32,000 nt of DNA from Candidatus Velamenicoccus archaeovorus. Lineage in GTDB: Bacteria > Omnitrophota > Gorgyraeia > Velamenicoccales > Velamenicoccaceae. Below the pieces are notes generated by a model, which was not told where the DNA came from, did no database searches, and saw only the letters and a list, made by a program, of their open reading frames with translations. A program made the translations under genes and the position numbers. Every line of letters starts with the position of its first letter. The stretch's first letter is position 1. The stretch lies in the NCBI RefSeq assembly GCF_004102945.1, contig NZ_CP019384.1, positions 1,380,001 through 1,412,000 on the forward strand, written 5' to 3'. Shown here piece by piece: positions 3,190-26,497 of this stretch.

Positions 3190-4209
3190 TTAGGCGGACC
3201 CGCCGATCTTTAGCGGCGGGCATCTCCGGCCCTGGCCTTGCCCTGCCGAAGGCGGGGCAGGCCGCCGAGACCGGGGAATTCCGGCCGGGGGATTAAAATC
3301 TAAAAAGCAGAAAAACCTGTCGGAAAAATTCACTTCGAGGATGGAGCGGCCGTTGAGACAAACCGTAAAACTGCGCCCGTTGAAGGAAATCCTGTTCCCT
3401 GCCTCGATGGTCCGCATGATCCTGAGGACTTTTTCATCTTCCGGCCCCAGGGCCCCTGTTTCCAGCAAGAGCGGAGTAACACAATTTACGGCCGCGTATC
3501 GGATCGTGCCGCGGCGCATGGAGACAGAAAACCTGACGTAATTCCCTGACCGGAAAACAAGAACAGGCGCTGCCAGACCGGACATGAGTTTTTGCGCAAG
3601 GCCTGGCCGATAAGACTCATAGAAGGAAAGAACCTTATCTGCCAGCTCTATGGAAGAAGGACAGTCTAAACGACAGGGCCAGTGAAATATCAAGGGGTGG
3701 CCGGCGTAACGGTTCAGGCGTGCGTCCGGCTGCCAATAAAGCCGGCTTGCATAAGAAGAAGACGGGAACCGCCCAAGATAGTCTTCGACATCGCAAATGA
3801 AAGACCAGGGATTACCCTGGGCCCTGAACCTCGCGACACAACACGACGGGTATCCCAGGAGGCGGCCGTACTCACGGACATGCCGGCGCCGCCGAAACAC
3901 TCCGTCGTGAATATCGAACAACCTTTCGACGTCTTGACGCCTGCGGGAAAAAATGATCTTAACATTCTTCCCAAGCCGGAGCACCCGATAATACAAAAAT
4001 AGGCGCTTCAAAAGAACCGCCAGGTTCCTGATCGCCGTCATATCCGTCTGCGGCAAACCGTCAAAAGTCCCCGAAGGTTTCAATCCGCCGTAGACTTGCA
4101 AAATAAAAAGCTTGTGGCTGTCCGGCAACGGGACCGTTGCGGCGATGCGGCGGAAATCTTCGGCTATGCGCCTCTCCTCCTGCGAAGGGGAAAAATCTCT
4201 CCTGGACAT
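3190..4209 (-). CDS. Hypothetical protein with conserved-looking Cys motifs (LLGYPSCCV ... HWPCRLDCPSS)
   Basis: 339-aa ORF with no competing ORF. The GYPxCC plus PC..C pattern recalls what I remember of DUF483-type proteins, but this is unverified. There is no obvious SD. The C-terminal 35 aa are P/G/R-rich. Confidence 0.55.
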   Translation of the reverse strand: MSRRDFSPSQEERRIAEDFRRIAATVPLPDSHKLFILQVYGGLKPSGTFDGLPQTDMTAIRNLAVLLKRLFLYYRVLRLGKNVKIIFSRRRQDVERLFDIHDGVFRRRRHVREYGRLLGYPSCCVARFRAQGNPWSFICDVEDYLGRFPSSSYASRLYWQPDARLNRYAGHPLIFHWPCRLDCPSSIELADKVLSFYESYRPGLAQKLMSGLAAPVLVFRSGNYVRFSVSMRRGTIRYAAVNCVTPLLLETGALGPEDEKVLRIMRTIEAGNRISFNGRSFTVCLNGRSILEVNFSDRFFCFLDFNPPAGIPRSRRPAPPSAGQGQGRRCPPLKIGGSA

Positions 4210-4976: not shown

Positions 4977-5443
4977 AAAACCTCCTTAATTCCGCCTCTG
5001 GCGGATTAACCCCTGCCTGCCCGCCGGGCAGGCGAGCCTGCGCCAGTCCATTTCATGAACGCCTCTGGCGTTTGTGAGTGAAATGGACAAGCGCCCGCCA
5101 CCACTGCGTCGGCGGGCGTCCGCCGAAGAACTAGTGGCGGACGTTTTGGCCAGGGGTCTTTCTTTTAAAAATCCTTCCGCCTCCGGCAAAATTAGGCCCT
5201 TCGCTTATTTGGTATTGCGAAGGCCTACCCTTTCTGGGTTAGACCCTCCGCTATGTGGTTACCCGACTCTATCGGATGAGTCGGTATGCCGCTTTCTGCG
5301 GCATGCGGAGACCTACCCTTTCTGGGTTAGGTCCTCCTCTATGTGGAATGCGGAGACCTACCCTTTCTGGGTTAGGTCCTCCTCTATGTGGAATGCGGAG
5401 ACCTACCCTTTCTGGGTTAAGCCCTATACCGAAGCGCTCCTCC
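4977..5443. repeat. REP/BIME-like array of nested imperfect palindromes, including a 45-bp unit repeated 2.6x in tandem (5305-5420)
   Basis: Units 5305-5349 and 5350-5394 are identical (gcggagacctaccctttctgggttaggtcctcctctatgtggaat), with a partial third copy to 5420. Longer variants lie at 5190-5304. Additional hairpins lie at 4986-5009, 5014-5030, 5048-5089, 5092-5117 and 5119-5143. Confidence 0.85.
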
Positions 5444-18783: not shown

Positions 18784-18960
18784 CAGACCTTTCCGGCTTC
18801 TTCGCGGATGGCAGCTACTTATGAATCTCCCCCTGCTCACCCTGCCCAAAGCAGGGCAGGCACGGGGTTTCTTACCTCGATGACCCCGCATCGTAAGATA
18901 TCGTAAAAATTTCTTGCCCAGGGCTGCCGGGCGCCAAATTTTTCCGATACTCGCGGGGTG

Positions 18961-20116: not shown

Positions 20117-20365
20117 CTACTGTGCCTGTGCTATTCTATGAATCAATTCGGATAGAAAAGTCTGATACTTAATACCTAAGCGCTGGGCCTTATGTTTGAT
20201 GTTTGCAAGGTCGTGACTATTCACTCGGATATTTAAAACAGTATCTTTTTTTCTTGCAGCTATAGCTTGAACAATCTGCTCATACTCATTGCGGTCCACA
20301 GGAACGAATTCTTCAAGACTATCTTCAATAGCCTGCTCTTCTCTGGTTAATTTAATCTTTCTCAT
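20117..20365 (-). CDS. brnA: BrnA-type antitoxin
   Basis: 82 aa. NIRVNSHDLANIKHKAQRLGIKYQTFLSELIHR matches the ribbon-helix-helix-like BrnA C-terminus. It overlaps brnT by 14 nt in an AT-rich region. Confidence 0.75.
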   Translation of the reverse strand: MRKIKLTREEQAIEDSLEEFVPVDRNEYEQIVQAIAARKKDTVLNIRVNSHDLANIKHKAQRLGIKYQTFLSELIHRIAQAQ

Positions 20366-20621
20366 GGCGTTTCCCCTTTTTATAAAGTTTCATTAGTTTT
20401 CTGCTTGGATATATCGTTTTTAAAAATATTGCATCTCCCTCTATAATATACGGCACAGCCCATAAATAGCCTTTATGCTCATATACAAAGATTTTCTGAT
20501 CTTGTCTGCGAGGATGCTTAATAATATCAATGAGTTTCGAAGCTACAATTTCTTCAAATGAAATACCTCTCGTCCGTTTCAGTCGTTCACTTTTAAGCGC
20601 ATTCCATTTAAGCTCTTTCAT
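20352..20621 (-). CDS. brnT: BrnT-type (DUF497) toxin
   Basis: The track start is a TTG inside the promoter, so the ORF is trimmed to the ATG at 20621. MKELKWNALKSERLKRTRGISFEE ... IFLKTIYPSRKLMKLY is a typical DUF497 pattern. Confidence 0.8.
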   Translation of the reverse strand: MKELKWNALKSERLKRTRGISFEEIVASKLIDIIKHPRRQDQKIFVYEHKGYLWAVPYIIEGDAIFLKTIYPSRKLMKLYKKGKRHEKD

Positions 20622-20642
20622 AAATACCTTTTGTATATACAA

Positions 20643-20722: not shown

Positions 20723-20743
20723 TGGCTCCCCCGCGAGGACTCG
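20723..20743 (-). pseudogene. 21-nt exact copy of the tRNA-Asn 3' end (att-like scar)
   Basis: tggctcccccgcgaggactcg is identical to 21095-21115. Confidence 0.8.
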
Positions 20744-20760
20744 GCTACTGATGTTTTTTT

Positions 20761-20825
20761 TGGCTCCCCCGCTCGGGTCGTCGCTCGGTTGCCTGCCTCG
20801 CTCAAAAACTCGAACCTCGGACCTG
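20761..20825 (-). pseudogene. Interrupted copy of the tRNA-Asn 3' end
   Basis: tggctcccccgc (12 nt) and actcgaacctcggacctg (18 nt) both match the tRNA-Asn 3' region. They are separated by a 35-nt insert where the intact gene has 4 nt (gagg). Confidence 0.7.
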
Positions 20826-21051
20826 TCGCTCCTCGCCTGCCTACTAAATTTATTCATTAAGGATGTCGGCAGCTCGGTCGCTCCCCATAGGGGAACCCAA
20901 TGGTTCCCCCTTTGGCGTCGCCCGCCTCGGCCTTCAGCCAAGGCAGGCTCCTGTCACCCCCTCCCTAGCATCCAAACGATATGCTTAAGGGGAAAACGGT
21001 CTTTTCCCCTTAATAATCCCCTTTTTAGGTCCTCGATTCGTCTCCCAGAAA

Positions 21052-21092
21052 GCCAAATAAAAAGGCCCACTAAACTTCAGTGGGCCTTTTTA
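21052..21092 (-). terminator. Rho-independent terminator after tRNA-Asn
   Basis: Minus strand: CCA, then AATAAAAA-GGCCCACT-gaagttt-AGTGGGCC-TTTTTATTT. Confidence 0.65.
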
Positions 21093-21094
21093 TT

Positions 21095-21446
21095 TGGCTC
21101 CCCCGCGAGGACTCGAACCTCGGACCTGGTGGTTAACAGCCACTCGCTCTTAAGTTTGTTGCTCCCTGCTGTACGCAGGTGGGTTGATATTGGGATCAAC
21201 CTCTCCCGTTTCTTTTCTATCGAGTCATGCCGGGAGTTCGGACTATCGCTTTGCCGTTTAATACGGCATTCCGTCGCTTAGTCTCTCACGCTGTCCTTTT
21301 TTACAGGACTTGCGCCTTGTCACCCACTCCTGGGCCTCCAAGTCAATCAGACGGAATTTAACGTCGGCATTGTTTCCGGAAGTCAGAGAGCCATGCCACT
21401 CGCTCCCTGCCTGCCGGCAGGCAGGTACCGACTGAGCTACGGGGGA
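21095..21446 (-). tRNA. tRNA-Asn(GUU), interrupted by a 276-nt intervening sequence in the D-loop
   Basis: Exon 1 (21446-21427) reads TCCCCCGTAGCTCAGTCGGT. Exon 2 (21150-21095) reads AGAGCGAGTGGCTGTTAACCACCAGGTCCGAGGTTCGAGTCCTCGCGGGGGAGCCA. Joined, they form a canonical 76-nt cloverleaf with anticodon loop CTGTTAA and an encoded CCA. Confidence 0.75.
21151..21426 (-). ncRNA. Group-I-intron-like intervening sequence
   Basis: Pairings occur in canonical order. P1: exon GUCGGU with GCCGAC (21368-21363), giving U-G at the junction. P3: UUCCGUC/GACGGAA. P4: GACUUG/CAAGUC. P7: AGACUA/UAGUC. P8: UGCCGU-AUUAA-ACGGCA. Three 3' hairpins follow. There is no omega-G at the inferred 3' junction. Confidence 0.5.
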
Positions 21447-21491
21447 ATAAAGCTATAAAGAACGGAAAATCCACCCTGAAGGGGTGGAAAG

Positions 21492-21520
21492 ATTATATGC
21501 GAAAAAAAGACGAGCGTCAA
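21492..21520 (-). promoter_or_regulatory. Candidate tRNA-Asn promoter
   Basis: Minus strand reads TTGACG (21520-21515), a 17-nt spacer, then TATAAT (21497-21492), about 45 nt upstream of the tRNA 5' end. Confidence 0.5.
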
Positions 21521-24227: not shown

Positions 24228-24830
24228 TTATATCTCCCGGCGCCCTTCCATGGCCCGCGCCAGGGTCGCGGGATCCGCGTATTCCAGGTTGGAACCCACG
24301 GGCAGGCCGATGCCGATGCGCATCACCTTGACGCCCAGGGGCCGCAGGAGTTTCGTCAGAAAGATAGCGGTGGCCTCGCCTTCCGTGTCGGAATCCGTGG
24401 CGATAACGACTTCACGCACCTCTCCTTTTTTGACGCGCGCGATCAGGCCGTCCACTTTAAGGTCGTGCGGCCCCCGGCCTTCCAAAGGAGAAATCGCGCC
24501 CAAGAGCACGTGATACGTGCCATGGAAATTCGCGCTGCGCTCGATGTTCTCGACGTCCTTGGGGCTTTCGACGACGCAGACGATCGTCTGGTCGCGCCTC
24601 AAGTCGCCGCAGATACTGCAGACGTCCGTCTCGCTGAAATTATTGCAGACGCTGCAAAACCGCACGCTCTCCTTGACCTTCGTGATCGCCTCAGTCAGGA
24701 GCGTCACATCTTCTTTGGAGGTGTCCAGCATGTGATAGACAATCCTCTGGGCGCTGCGGCGGCCGATACCCGGTAGTTTCATCAACTCTTCGATCAGCTT
24801 CTCTATCGTCGCAAGACTGTATCCGGCCAT
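24228..24830 (-). CDS. recR: Recombination protein RecR
   Basis: LIEELMKLPGIGRRSAQRI (HhH), a CSVCNNFSETDVCSIC zinc finger, and a Toprim domain. Confidence 0.95.
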   Translation of the reverse strand: MAGYSLATIEKLIEELMKLPGIGRRSAQRIVYHMLDTSKEDVTLLTEAITKVKESVRFCSVCNNFSETDVCSICGDLRRDQTIVCVVESPKDVENIERSANFHGTYHVLLGAISPLEGRGPHDLKVDGLIARVKKGEVREVVIATDSDTEGEATAIFLTKLLRPLGVKVMRIGIGLPVGSNLEYADPATLARAMEGRREI

Positions 24831-24832
24831 GG

Positions 24833-26497
24833 CTATTTTCCGACCACCTTCCCTTTAAAAAGGTCCATCGCCGATTTGAAAAACGGCGTCTCTTCAAAAT
24901 GCGCTTCCTCTTTGGCCGCAGGCGCCAACCCCTGCACGATATCCAGCTTCAAACGCAGGCGCGCGCCGCAGACGCTCGCAATCGCTTCTTCGAGGACCTT
25001 CAGATTATCTTTATGCTCCAGGGTCTCCTTGAAAAATACGGCGGTCCTGGGAAAGCCTATCGTCAACAAGCCGTCCTCGCACCGCACAGGCGAGGCTTCG
25101 CGCAGATATGTCGAAACCGACATCTTGACTCCCGCCAAGTGGCGGATCAACCTATCCCAGCTGTTCTGCACGTCCTGCAGGGAGCAGGATTTTTCGGAGG
25201 AGACTTCGCCGGCTTCCATGGAAGATGACTGCAGGTGAAGACCGACGGATTTCTCTGGCGGGACGAATGAACTCAAACGGTTATCCGCCGAACCCCTCTC
25301 TTCCCTCAAAACAGAAAGAGGCTTTTTGACGGGCGGGGCTGCGGCCTTGACGACAGACGGGCCGGCATTCTCTTTGACCGGCCGCGGCAAAGGCTGCTCT
25401 TTTTTGGCGCTGCCGCCGGCCAGCTTGACGGCCAGTATTTCCAGCGGGATGCGCGTGGTGCTTAGCTTTCTCGACATCTCCTGCGCCGCAAAGATCTGGT
25501 TGATGGCCACCATGATGTCTGCCAACTCCATGCGCTGCGCCTGGGAAGAGATCTGCGCGATCAGCTCCGCGGGCAGATCCACGAGCTCCTCGCGGCCTTC
25601 CTTCATGATCTTGGCGACCATCAGGTTCCTGTAATGCTCCAGGAGGCCATCAAGAAAATAATTCATGTCTTTGCCTTTGGCGCTGATCTCCGCGATCAGG
25701 CGTAGCGCCGTCGGCGCGTCGCCGGCGCGGCAGGCATCCACAAATTTCAAAAAGACGTCCTCTTCGATGATGCCCAAGATCGAAATAACATCCTCAAGCT
25801 TGATGTCCTTCTGCGAAAAGGCGATCAACTGATCGAGGATGGATTCGGCATCGCGCATGCAGCCGTTGGCCGCCTTGGCGATGGCCAAAAAGACGTCTTC
25901 GCCGATGGGAAGCTTTTCATCGGCGGCGATCTCCTTGAGTTTTTCGATGACCTTGAGGTTCGGGATGCGGACGAAATCGAACCGCTGGCAGCGCGACAGG
26001 ATCGTCGGCAATACTTTCTGGGGCTGGGTCGTGGCAAAAATGAACGTGACGAAAGACGGCGGCTCTTCAAGCGTCTTCAAGAGCGCGTTGAAGGCCTCCG
26101 GGGTCAGCATGTGGACTTCATCGATGATATAGACCTTGAACTTGCCGTTCAAGGGCGCAAATTTGACGTTCTCGCGCAGGGACCGGATCTCGTCGATGCC
26201 GCGGTTGGACGCGCCGTCGATCTCGATGACGTCCAGGCTGCGGCCCTCGGCGATCTCTTGGCAGGCCGGGCAAACCCCGCAAGGATGCTGGGTCGGCCCT
26301 TGCTGGCAATTTAAAGCCTTGGCTAAAATGCGCGCGCACGAGGTCTTTCCGACGCCCTGCGGCCCGGAGAAGAGATACGCGTGCGCCAGTTTGTTGGATT
26401 GGATGGCGCTCTTGAGGGTTTTGGTGATATGGTCCTGGCCGATGACTTCGTCAAAATTTTTCGGCCGCCACTTCCTGGCAAAAACGAGGTAAGACAT
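24833..26497 (-). CDS. dnaX: DNA polymerase III subunit gamma/tau
   Basis: ARKWRPKNFDEVIGQ, GPQGVGKTS (Walker A), a CGVCPAC zinc module, and VYIIDEVHML. Confidence 0.95.
   Translation of the reverse strand: MSYLVFARKWRPKNFDEVIGQDHITKTLKSAIQSNKLAHAYLFSGPQGVGKTSCARILAKALNCQQGPTQHPCGVCPACQEIAEGRSLDVIEIDGASNRGIDEIRSLRENVKFAPLNGKFKVYIIDEVHMLTPEAFNALLKTLEEPPSFVTFIFATTQPQKVLPTILSRCQRFDFVRIPNLKVIEKLKEIAADEKLPIGEDVFLAIAKAANGCMRDAESILDQLIAFSQKDIKLEDVISILGIIEEDVFLKFVDACRAGDAPTALRLIAEISAKGKDMNYFLDGLLEHYRNLMVAKIMKEGREELVDLPAELIAQISSQAQRMELADIMVAINQIFAAQEMSRKLSTTRIPLEILAVKLAGGSAKKEQPLPRPVKENAGPSVVKAAAPPVKKPLSVLREERGSADNRLSSFVPPEKSVGLHLQSSSMEAGEVSSEKSCSLQDVQNSWDRLIRHLAGVKMSVSTYLREASPVRCEDGLLTIGFPRTAVFFKETLEHKDNLKVLEEAIASVCGARLRLKLDIVQGLAPAAKEEAHFEETPFFKSAMDLFKGKVVGK

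Follow-up and report, generated by a model that had tools for sequence, protein, structure and literature searches.

A tRNA-Asn(GUU) gene of Candidatus Velamenicoccus archaeovorus with a probable phage-type group I intron in the D-loop

The classical group I introns of bacterial tRNA genes are found in the genes for tRNA-Leu(UAA), tRNA-fMet, tRNA-Ile(CAU) and tRNA-Arg(CCU), where they interrupt the 7-nt anticodon loop. According to a survey of about 80,000 genomes (Williams 2020), these four types belong to subgroup IC3; the survey distinguishes 21 types of tRNA group I introns, covers by design only eight sites in the anticodon loop, and also mentions introns in the T-loop of transfer-messenger RNA (tmRNA). 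Here, we consider a tRNA-Asn(GUU) gene in a 32,000-nt stretch of the genome of Candidatus Velamenicoccus archaeovorus (contig NZ_CP019384.1, positions 1,380,001 to 1,412,000; referred to as the window, with coordinates counted from its first letter). In this gene 276 nt, very probably a group I intron, separate positions 20 and 21 of the tRNA, i.e., the interruption is located in the D-loop. A literature search of incomplete coverage turned up no earlier description of a bacterial tRNA with a group I intron in the D-loop, and the only large survey found is confined to anticodon-loop sites; the suggestion, made in an earlier note on this DNA, that the site is new for bacterial tRNAs stands within that coverage.

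The insert resembles the classical introns, as well as the other anticodon-loop types of the 2020 survey, in being a ribozyme in a tRNA gene without an intron open reading frame (ORF; none of at least 60 aa is present on the intron strand within 21151-21426), in building P1 from nucleotides of a tRNA loop and in lying where a tRNA stem pairs the two exons. It differs from them in its site, in a 58-nt P1 loop that holds a palindrome and a copy of the start of exon 2, in its terminal A, and in its match to the Rfam model RF00028, which is 15 bits as compared to 75-77 bits for anticodon-loop introns of two related lineages (L322 and L333). Both this score and the absence of P2 from the core set it apart from the IC3 introns. 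Closer relatives are members of a phage intron family (referred to as R1), which share the sequence and fold of the core, the format of P1 (U then A at the 5' splice site, opposite UG in the guide), the J1/3 segment (xxAAA) and the layout of P9, P9.1 and P9.2. The phage members reside in protein-coding genes, and their P1 loops are 6-21 nt long with neither palindrome nor exon copy. According to a review from 2014 (PMC3984707), all phage introns then known were found in protein-coding genes.

Other systems are more distant. The tmRNA introns, as described in the 2020 survey, also reside in a tRNA-like fold outside an anticodon loop, but theirs is the T-loop of tmRNA, whereas the present site is the D-loop of a decoding tRNA. 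The non-canonical archaeal tRNA introns, some of which are found in the D-arm, likewise lie outside the anticodon loop; a protein endonuclease excises these and a ligase seals the exons, while the insert considered here has a ribozyme core and no bulge-helix-bulge motif. IStrons, which combine a group I intron with an IS200/IS605-type transposon, are similar in having a ribozyme, a palindromic hairpin near the 5' end and border repeats, and RNA excision would remove the whole insertion. However, the 276 nt encode no transposase or other ORF, and a 3'-end hairpin that resembles the 5' palindrome is seen in the window but not in the second D-loop intron described below. A transposon origin of the D-loop intron is speculation. 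In Velamenicoccus itself, the 23S rRNA gene also carries a group I intron, which was reported in 2026 to accumulate in the archaeal prey (PMC13153191); that report does not mention tRNA, and it cites a metatranscriptome of the culture (SRR30230645; 57.9 M reads) that was not rRNA-depleted.

The split gene and its ribozyme core

The two exons are found on the minus strand (Table 1), and the coordinates and letters given in the earlier note for the exons, the palindrome, the exon-2 copy and the 3' junction all agree with the re-read sequence. Neither ARAGORN nor Rfam at curated thresholds called a gene at this locus in the genomic sequence; at a permissive threshold the Rfam tRNA model gave a partial match of 22.9 bits to exon 2 only. 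When the exons were joined in silico at U20/A21, ARAGORN identified the product as a canonical tRNA-Asn(GTT) of 76 nt, in which the D-stem has 4 bp and the D-loop reads AGUCGGUA, i.e., the textbook tRNA that had been recognized in the joined letters. The junction expected in spliced RNA is GCUCAGUCGGU followed directly by AGAGCGAGUGG (or, in other flank lengths, GCTCAGTCGGT followed by AGAGCGAGTGG), within the joined stretch GGUAGAGC. Exon 1 matches the 5' part of the intact tRNA-Asn genes of relatives exactly. A metagenome scan with the anticodon arm of the split gene recovered 107 intact tRNA-Asn genes, and two intact metagenome genes (L186 and L187) are only one D-loop base apart from the joined exons. 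Because the join yields a canonical tRNA-Asn call and these two genes differ from it by a single base, the join is real and not a chance resemblance.

Split protein genes of phages are the classic setting of phage group I introns. When the intron was searched against phage genomes by blastn, it matched the gap of a split P22-type coat gene (MW202674) and that of a split ribonucleotide reductase gene in Roseobacter phage CRP-118. A P4-P6 motif of the window that the matched sequences share was used to collect 63 IMG/VR contigs. Pairing was counted over 25 distinct aligned cores with an explicit 29-pair model that comprises P3, P4, P5, P6, P8 and the P7 pseudoknot; 98.9% of its cells are paired, as compared to 37-48% in controls with slid partners. 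Compensatory changes are seen in 12 pairs of this core (P3, 6 of 7, and P8, 4 of 4, among them), and further family members covary in P7, where an A-U pair (GACUA/UAGUC) alternates with G-C (GACUG/CAGUC).

A covariance model (also named R1; 118 positions) was built from 29 phage sequences only, i.e., the tRNA-Asn sequences were left out. It aligns to the window core over model positions 1-118 with 104.6 bits (E~5e-21, a rough value owing to a shortened calibration) and to the core of the second D-loop intron with 107.8 bits. The helices P3-P8 occur in the canonical order of group I introns, with the P3/P7 pseudoknot. The R and S blocks, GUGAGAGACUAAG and AAGCGAUAGUCC, are present, are invariant or nearly so in the family, and align to the RF00028 consensus AGACUAA and GAUAUAGUC, respectively. 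Most of the helices proposed in the earlier note are retained by this comparison and covary, i.e., P3 (UUCCGUC/GACGGAA), P7 (GACUA/UAGUC), P8 and the three 3' hairpins. For P4 the 5' strand GACUUG is as proposed, but its partner is CAAGGC with an A.G pair, not CAAGUC, and the short P6 hairpin is replaced by GC/GC; family conservation gives P5 as CCCA/UGGG and an inner hairpin GUCCU/AGGAC. Scans of viral sequences with an R..P3'..S pattern and with a palindrome-plus-copy pattern gave no matches. Two different group I introns reside on one viral contig (L298:2464-2673 and L298:4067-4186); one matches RF00028 (81.2 bits), while the other belongs to the R1 family and is missed by Rfam.

The pairing of a guide GCCGAC with the exon segment GUCGGU, previously proposed to place a U-G wobble at the 5' junction, is borne out and lengthens to 7 bp through A+1:U. 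This P1, i.e., GUCGGU plus the intron A with UGCCGAC, is found in both the minimum-free-energy and the centroid folds of the introns of the window and of L226, the metagenome contig that carries the second D-loop intron. The guide directly precedes GUUAAA (J1/3) and P3, leaving no P2. In phage members with a clear P1, the final U of the exon pairs with a guide G, and the first intron base, an A, pairs with a guide U; examples are AGACGCT then A with TGGTGTCT, and ACGTCCGT then A with TGCGGACGT. Because the tRNA-Asn gene (GTCGGT then A, with TGCCGAC) shares this format, the 5' splice site is fixed at U20/A21. Two other arrangements were considered and rejected. A split at positions 32/33 of the anticodon loop, which a 12-nt repeat would allow, gives C at position -1 and C at the last intron position (omega), and leaves the guide unpaired. 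Use of the palindrome as P1, as in the alignment by Rfam, leaves two G.G mismatches and no U.G for the segment that follows the palindrome, while UGCCGAC fits the rule of the family.

Table 1. Features of the split tRNA-Asn gene and its surroundings in the window
Feature	Position	Strand	Basis or remark
Sigma-70-type promoter of the tRNA-Asn unit, TTGACG-17 nt-TATAAT	21492-21520	-	11/12 consensus matches
Exon 1, tRNA-Asn positions 1-20 (acceptor 5' strand, D-stem 5' strand, D-loop to U20)	21427-21446	-	reads TCCCCCGTAGCTCAGTCGGT
Very probable group I intron, 276 nt	21151-21426	-	between exons 1 and 2
Perfect 20-nt palindrome CCUGCCUGCCGGCAGGCAGG in the P1 loop; predicted 6-bp hairpin A, last 4 nt in hairpin B	21406-21425	-	sequence, folding
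Copy of exon-2 start, GAGCGAGTGGC = GAGCGAGUGGC (tRNA positions 22-32)	21395-21405	-	9 nt kept in L226
Predicted hairpin B, CAGGGAGC with GCUCUCUG, sequestering the exon-2 copy	21384-21409	-	folding
Internal guide UGCCGAC; pairs with exon GUCGGU and intron A+1 (P1), U.G wobble at the 5' splice site	21363-21369	-	folds; phage format; kept in L226
Catalytic core: J1/3, P3, P4, P5, P6, P7, P3', P8, P7', with P3/P7 pseudoknot	21235-21362	-	covariance model R1, pair counts, partial RF00028 alignment
P7 5' strand GACUA in the R element GAGAGACUAAG (partner UAGUC, 21241-21245); G-C pair of the guanosine-binding site	21279-21283	-	sequence and covariation
Hairpins P9 (CUCCCG/CGGGAG), P9.1 (GGUUGAU/AUCAACC) and P9.2 (CCUGC/GCAGG)	21165-21236	-	compensatory changes relative to L226
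Last intron nucleotide (omega), A; G in L226 (L226:546)	21151	-	sequence
Exon 2, tRNA-Asn positions 21-76 with encoded CCA	21095-21150	-	reads AGAGCGAGTGGCTGTTAACCACCAGGTCCGAGGTTCGAGTCCTCGCGGGGGAGCCA
Intrinsic terminator, hairpin GGCCCACU/AGUGGGCC then U-run, directly after the tRNA CCA	21055-21086	-	read directly; aligned as terminator stem
Direct copies of tRNA-Asn 3' fragments, att-like integration scars, outside the intron	20723-20833	-	sequence

A second D-loop lineage, the 5' module and the conserved locus

The second D-loop intron is found on contig L226, where exon 1 (262-281), a 265-nt intron (282-546) and exon 2 (547-599) follow each other. This intron resides at the same D-loop site, is about 80% identical to that of the window, and has U at position -1 and a terminal G. 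The exons of the two genes differ by one compensated acceptor-stem pair. The flanks of L226 are unrelated to the window, and the gene has its own promoter (TTGACG-16-TAAAAT at the equivalent place) and terminator. Between the two introns, compensatory changes are observed in P8 (3), P9 (1), P9.1 (3) and P9.0 (1), and P9.2 is rebuilt in L226 as CCGU-GCAA-ACGG with a GCAA loop. Two lineages with such compensatory changes imply that the D-loop intron is maintained as a folded ribozyme, in L226 with fully canonical junctions. Covariation is thus found both in the core (25 cores) and in the P9 domain (L226), and the central proposal of the earlier note, a group I intron at D-loop position 20/21, is upheld by the phage-family core, by this covariation and by the terminal G at the same site in L226.

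The 5' part of the intron is unusual. The perfect palindrome and the 11-nt copy of the start of exon 2, which follow each other directly after the first intron nucleotide, had both been noted before and are both present as described. Intron nucleotides 1-30, i.e., A, the palindrome and GAGCGAGUG, are identical at 30 of 30 positions in the window and L226, as compared to 54% identity in the rest of the P1 loop, 82% in the catalytic core and 59% in the P9 domain. In L226 the folded equivalent of hairpin B is CAGG..GCGA/UCGC..CCUG, where the 3' strand differs and the complementarity is retained. In the phage relatives, which do not have this module, the distance from the junction to the guide is 6-21 nt instead of the 58-61 nt of the D-loop introns. 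The exact 20-mer is also found in an AT-rich intergenic spacer of a relative (L010:2915-2934, flanks gatag and tagtt). As to the family of intergenic palindromes to which the element had been assigned, an arm-based search found CCTGCC...GGCAGG hairpins at four loci in 32 kb, where 0.03 would be expected (the other three being 3242-3261, 5012-5032 and 18841-18860). This over-representation supports a loose set, but the loci originally named differ from the intron palindrome at more than three positions. The hairpins are possibly a dispersed element resembling repetitive extragenic palindromic (REP) sequences.

Judging from this conservation, the palindrome and the exon-2 copy appear to be an integral, tolerated or useful part of the intron rather than a sign of decay. 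A candidate role of the module, if it has one, is that of a stand-in or decoy for exon 2 that would manage D-stem pairing during transcription, by analogy with the Anabaena pre-tRNA intron; Zaug and colleagues are said to have found in 1993 that this intron requires pairing between exons, in the anticodon stem. Other candidates are a REP-like passenger that is tolerated in the P1 loop, and a short conversion tract. The anticodon-loop intron of L333 carries a P1-loop insertion of about 72 nt (L333:1500-1575), which has a perfect hairpin, CAATTCGCC GAAG GCGAATTG, at its start, immediately behind the 5' splice site, and GAGCGAG about 27 nt into the insertion; this arrangement may parallel the hairpin-plus-GAGCGAG module of the D-loop intron, or be a coincidence.

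In the window, the gene order is dnaX (24833-26497), recR (24228-24830), a GH1 glycosidase gene, a flippase gene and the split tRNA-Asn gene. The encoded flippase and RecR have 100% identity to proteins of Candidatus Velamenicoccus archaeovorus (Omnitrophota), whose genome consists of one 1.97-Mb contig. An intact tRNA-Asn gene is found downstream of dnaX-recR in at least 11 relatives, and the window keeps the same order; by this linkage the split gene is the ortholog of the conserved tRNA-Asn gene and not a stray copy. A survey of the clade, anchored on RecR, revealed further states of this gene. In L322 (RecR 86% identical) a canonical group I intron that ends in G (L322:7206-7422; RF00028 77.3 bits) interrupts it behind the CUGU of the anticodon loop, and in L331-L333 (RecR 86%) the same anticodon-loop site is occupied by an intron of different sequence, also ending in G (L333:1500-1786; 74.7 bits for L333). 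The gene is intact in L328 (RecR 84%) and in L329 and L330 (RecR 83%). The anticodon-loop-split genes of L322 and L333 are also missed by ARAGORN. Since these sister lineages harbor introns in the anticodon loop, tRNA-Asn is a recurrent and evidently tolerated host of introns.

The terminal adenosine and competing explanations

Several points weigh against a functional intron that is spliced from the tRNA-Asn precursor. The nucleotide before the 3' junction is A and not the conserved G, as the earlier note had read it, and this A is found in every Velamenicoccus-type copy, i.e., in the complete genome, a metagenome-assembled genome and several JGI metagenome contigs; the guanosine-binding P7 of the Velamenicoccus intron is unchanged relative to L226. 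From ribozyme biochemistry, exon ligation is expected to be strongly impaired where an omega A is combined with a G-C binding site; such impairment is reportedly known from the Tetrahymena variant G414A, and Been and Perrotta are said to have described it in 1991. On direct reading the canonical P10 is limited to one A-U pair. The covariation in the peripheral helices is a single pairwise comparison, because only two D-loop lineages were found. The phage set was picked with a motif from the window, so that invariance of P4-P6 is built into it and the R1 score is in part circular; the selecting motif does not include P3/P3', P8, P7 and J8/7. Finally, the window intron reaches only the above-mentioned 15 bits (E 0.2-0.3) against RF00028, below the gathering threshold of 50 bits. 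The alignment nonetheless spans P3, P4, P5, P6, J6/7, P7 and P3', and the L226 intron scores 24.6 bits (E 0.005), which is also under the threshold. The curated threshold misses the phage R1 members too, i.e., the weak score is explained by Rfam missing the entire R1-type family, and the RF00028 match, which had been put forward as a check, does not discriminate.

The position of the 3' splice site is suggested by a candidate P9.0, in which the two nucleotides before the last intron base pair with J7/9 (2 bp). On direct reading these change in step, from CGAAC with ..CUU-A in the window to CGAUC with ..AAU-G in L226. As a candidate pairing drawn from one pairwise comparison, P9.0 would put omega at 21151, where the earlier note had it.

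Taken together, there is little doubt that the 276-nt insert is a genuine group I intron at D-loop position 20/21. That the conserved tRNA-Asn(GUU) gene is split at U20/A21 by a compact, P2-less ribozyme of the phage family and is spliced to a 76-nt tRNA is the reading we consider probable, and with much the same degree of confidence the split gene would provide a functional tRNA-Asn in Velamenicoccus. Since the omega A should impair exon ligation, function in this organism is an inference. In the proposed mechanism, the gene would be transcribed from its own promoter, and G15-U20 together with the intron A+1 would pair with the guide UGCCGAC 58 nt downstream to form P1, with the U.G wobble at the cleavage site. 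The P3-P9 core would fold and take up a guanosine in P7, which would attack after U20; the freed 3'-OH of U20 would then attack the 3' junction. This junction would be placed by the 2-bp P9.0 together with exon-exon pairing in the D-stem, in analogy with the anticodon stem of the Anabaena pre-tRNA intron, and the product would be the 76-nt tRNA-Asn. A more elaborate version remains tentative, and we regard it as possible rather than probable: the intron would reside in the sole tRNA-Asn gene of the organism and be spliced in vivo with the omega A, guided by P9.0 and the D-stem, and during transcription the 5' module would take the place of exon 2, or serve as a decoy for it, and keep the D-arm organized until the real exon 2 has been made.

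Among the alternatives, the one to be taken most seriously, although unlikely, is that of a real intron in a dead gene, where the change of the terminal G to A blocks ligation and another tRNA-Asn gene elsewhere in the 1.97-Mb genome supplies decoding. The A at omega in all strains, next to an unchanged G-binding helix, is what this explanation would predict, and the tRNA-Asn fragments just downstream show that integrative elements have duplicated the tRNA. However, these fragments are truncated and not functional genes, the locus is the conserved one linked to dnaX-recR, and the promoter, the terminator and all helices are intact, as are the exons, which are unchanged. In addition, two Velamenicoccus haplotypes differ by four substitutions, every one of which falls on an unpaired nucleotide of the intron while the exons are the same, a weak tendency (p~0.06).

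A second alternative, which appears quite improbable, is splicing at the next G, 2 nt downstream (CUUAAG followed by AGCG). It would yield a 74-nt tRNA-Asn without A21 and G22 and with a 3-bp D-stem. Group I introns with a mutated terminal G tend toward a nearby cryptic G, and the 74-nt product (junction GCTCAGTCGGT followed by AGCGAGTGG) is still called tRNA-Asn by ARAGORN. On the other hand, A21 is near-invariant in tRNAs, the 4-bp D-stem is kept in all intact relatives, and the candidate P9.0 (J7/9 AA with UU; in L226 AU with AU) covaries and sets omega at the A.

The remaining explanation, which is highly improbable, is that the insert is no functional intron but what is left of a DNA element that duplicated 11-12 bp of its target (AGAGCGAGTGGC), a REP-like palindrome being inserted later. 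In its favor, a 12-nt direct repeat flanks 244 nt once the palindrome is subtracted, the palindrome is a discrete unit found elsewhere, putative serine-recombinase elements are seen in the D-loop of clostridial tRNA-Asn genes and the locus is an integration hot spot. Against it, the group I core of the insert is complete, and the exon upstream of the left repeat is exactly paired by the guide; in L226, U at -1 and a terminal G fall precisely on the D-loop junctions; the repeat and palindrome are better conserved than the catalytic core, and there are no terminal inverted repeats and no ORF. Nor are a recombinase and cargo found between a tRNA fragment and a full gene, as in an integrated element; only the 276-nt ribozyme resides between the exons. 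This is the alternative raised in the earlier note, a gene killed by an 11-bp target duplication plus a palindrome; in that form it is not supported, as both are kept perfectly between lineages with an 82% identical core, and the locus, promoter and terminator are intact.

Surroundings of the gene and implications

The segment from the promoter to tRNA position 1 contains a 7-bp hairpin, UCCACCCCUUCAGGGUGGA, with UUUUCC behind it (21470-21488, minus strand), which is terminator-like by scan; it is kept in strains and absent from L226, and could be a leader or attenuator element or merely a processing signal. Downstream of the flippase gene, synteny is gone in relatives at 70-75% flippase identity, and in L003, where the flippase is 98% identical, the tRNA-Asn locus is swapped for different DNA. 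This replacing DNA (L003:2260-2450) contains about four degenerate direct repeats of about 40 nt (ggtct.ccctt.ctgg..tag.tcct...). A blastn search for empty-site alleles with homologous flanks found none, and protein-level synteny was used in their place.

The copies of tRNA-Asn 3' fragments in the window are, on the minus strand, GAGTCCTCGCGGGGGAGCCA (20742-20723), GCGGGGGAGCCA (20772-20761) and GAGCGA-CAGGTCCGAGGTTCGAGT (~20833-20808), the last without an anticodon arm, and a BrnT/BrnA-like toxin-antitoxin pair is encoded at 20117-20642. In some strains and relatives, large serine recombinase genes (domains Resolvase, Recombinase and Zn_ribbon_recom) are found immediately after tRNA-Asn (L004:4762-6498, L005:4907-6532 and L330:9851-11503). 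The tRNA-Asn gene is an active integration site for genomic islands. At two loci from Clostridia, among the matches listed (L030:2780-2865 and L123:5900-5986), a tRNA-Asn 3' fragment that starts at GGTAGAGC in the D-loop directly follows the end of a coiled-coil ORF. This ORF is a putative serine-recombinase C-terminus; if so, these are integrative elements with an att site within the tRNA-Asn D-loop, a few bases away from where the intron resides.

The 5' end of the gene is also a target. In several lineages, with or without an intron, a GIY-YIG gene (80-81 aa; PF01541, E 1e-14 to 1e-16) is found directly 5' of tRNA-Asn, as in L001:7494-7831, L004:4494-4596 and L328:755-1000, and the L001 and L328 proteins are 62% identical. 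In L001, 14 nt of the tRNA 5' end (TTCCCCCGTAGCTC) are duplicated at the borders of the insert, which is about 350 bp long. A degraded remnant of 117 bp is present in L004-L009, and the window has no GIY-YIG gene. The insert resembles a free-standing mobile nuclease element with the tRNA-Asn 5' end as its target. On two metagenome contigs (L188:1620-1720 and L213:4540-4640), a tRNA-Asn-like anticodon arm is combined with an aberrant D-arm and, ahead of the T-arm, an unusually long A/T-rich insert (TGTCTGAAAAACTTGAAATAAAGTAGGTTCGAATCC); both may be tRNA-like genes of phages.

From the above discussion, it becomes clear which aspects of the locus are novel. Bacterial tRNA genes that harbor group I introns are known; new here are the D-loop site, a core of the phage type rather than of the IC3 type, the conserved module of hairpin and exon mimic, and the omega A in Velamenicoccus. 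The site indicates that a different loop of a tRNA can also serve these ribozymes as P1 substrate, and the core indicates that an intron of the phage type, not IC3, can colonize a cellular tRNA. There is also a practical consequence. Detection pipelines assume anticodon-loop sites, the place of all bacterial tRNA group I introns described so far, and the split gene is missed by ARAGORN, by Rfam at curated thresholds and presumably by genome annotation; the organism would therefore appear to be without a tRNA-Asn.

Within one clade, a single conserved gene is found in three states, interrupted in the D-loop, interrupted in the anticodon loop and uninterrupted, such that intron gain, loss and choice of site can be compared. 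The omega-A variant and the conserved mimic of exon 2 bear on the rules by which the 3' splice site is selected. If the sole tRNA-Asn gene of Velamenicoccus were indeed spliced with the A at omega, it would exemplify a naturally occurring group I ribozyme in which exon ligation is completed in the absence of omega G. The presence of a second ribozyme, in an essential gene, is also of immediate interest to the work that reports the 23S rRNA intron of this organism in its archaeal prey (PMC13153191).

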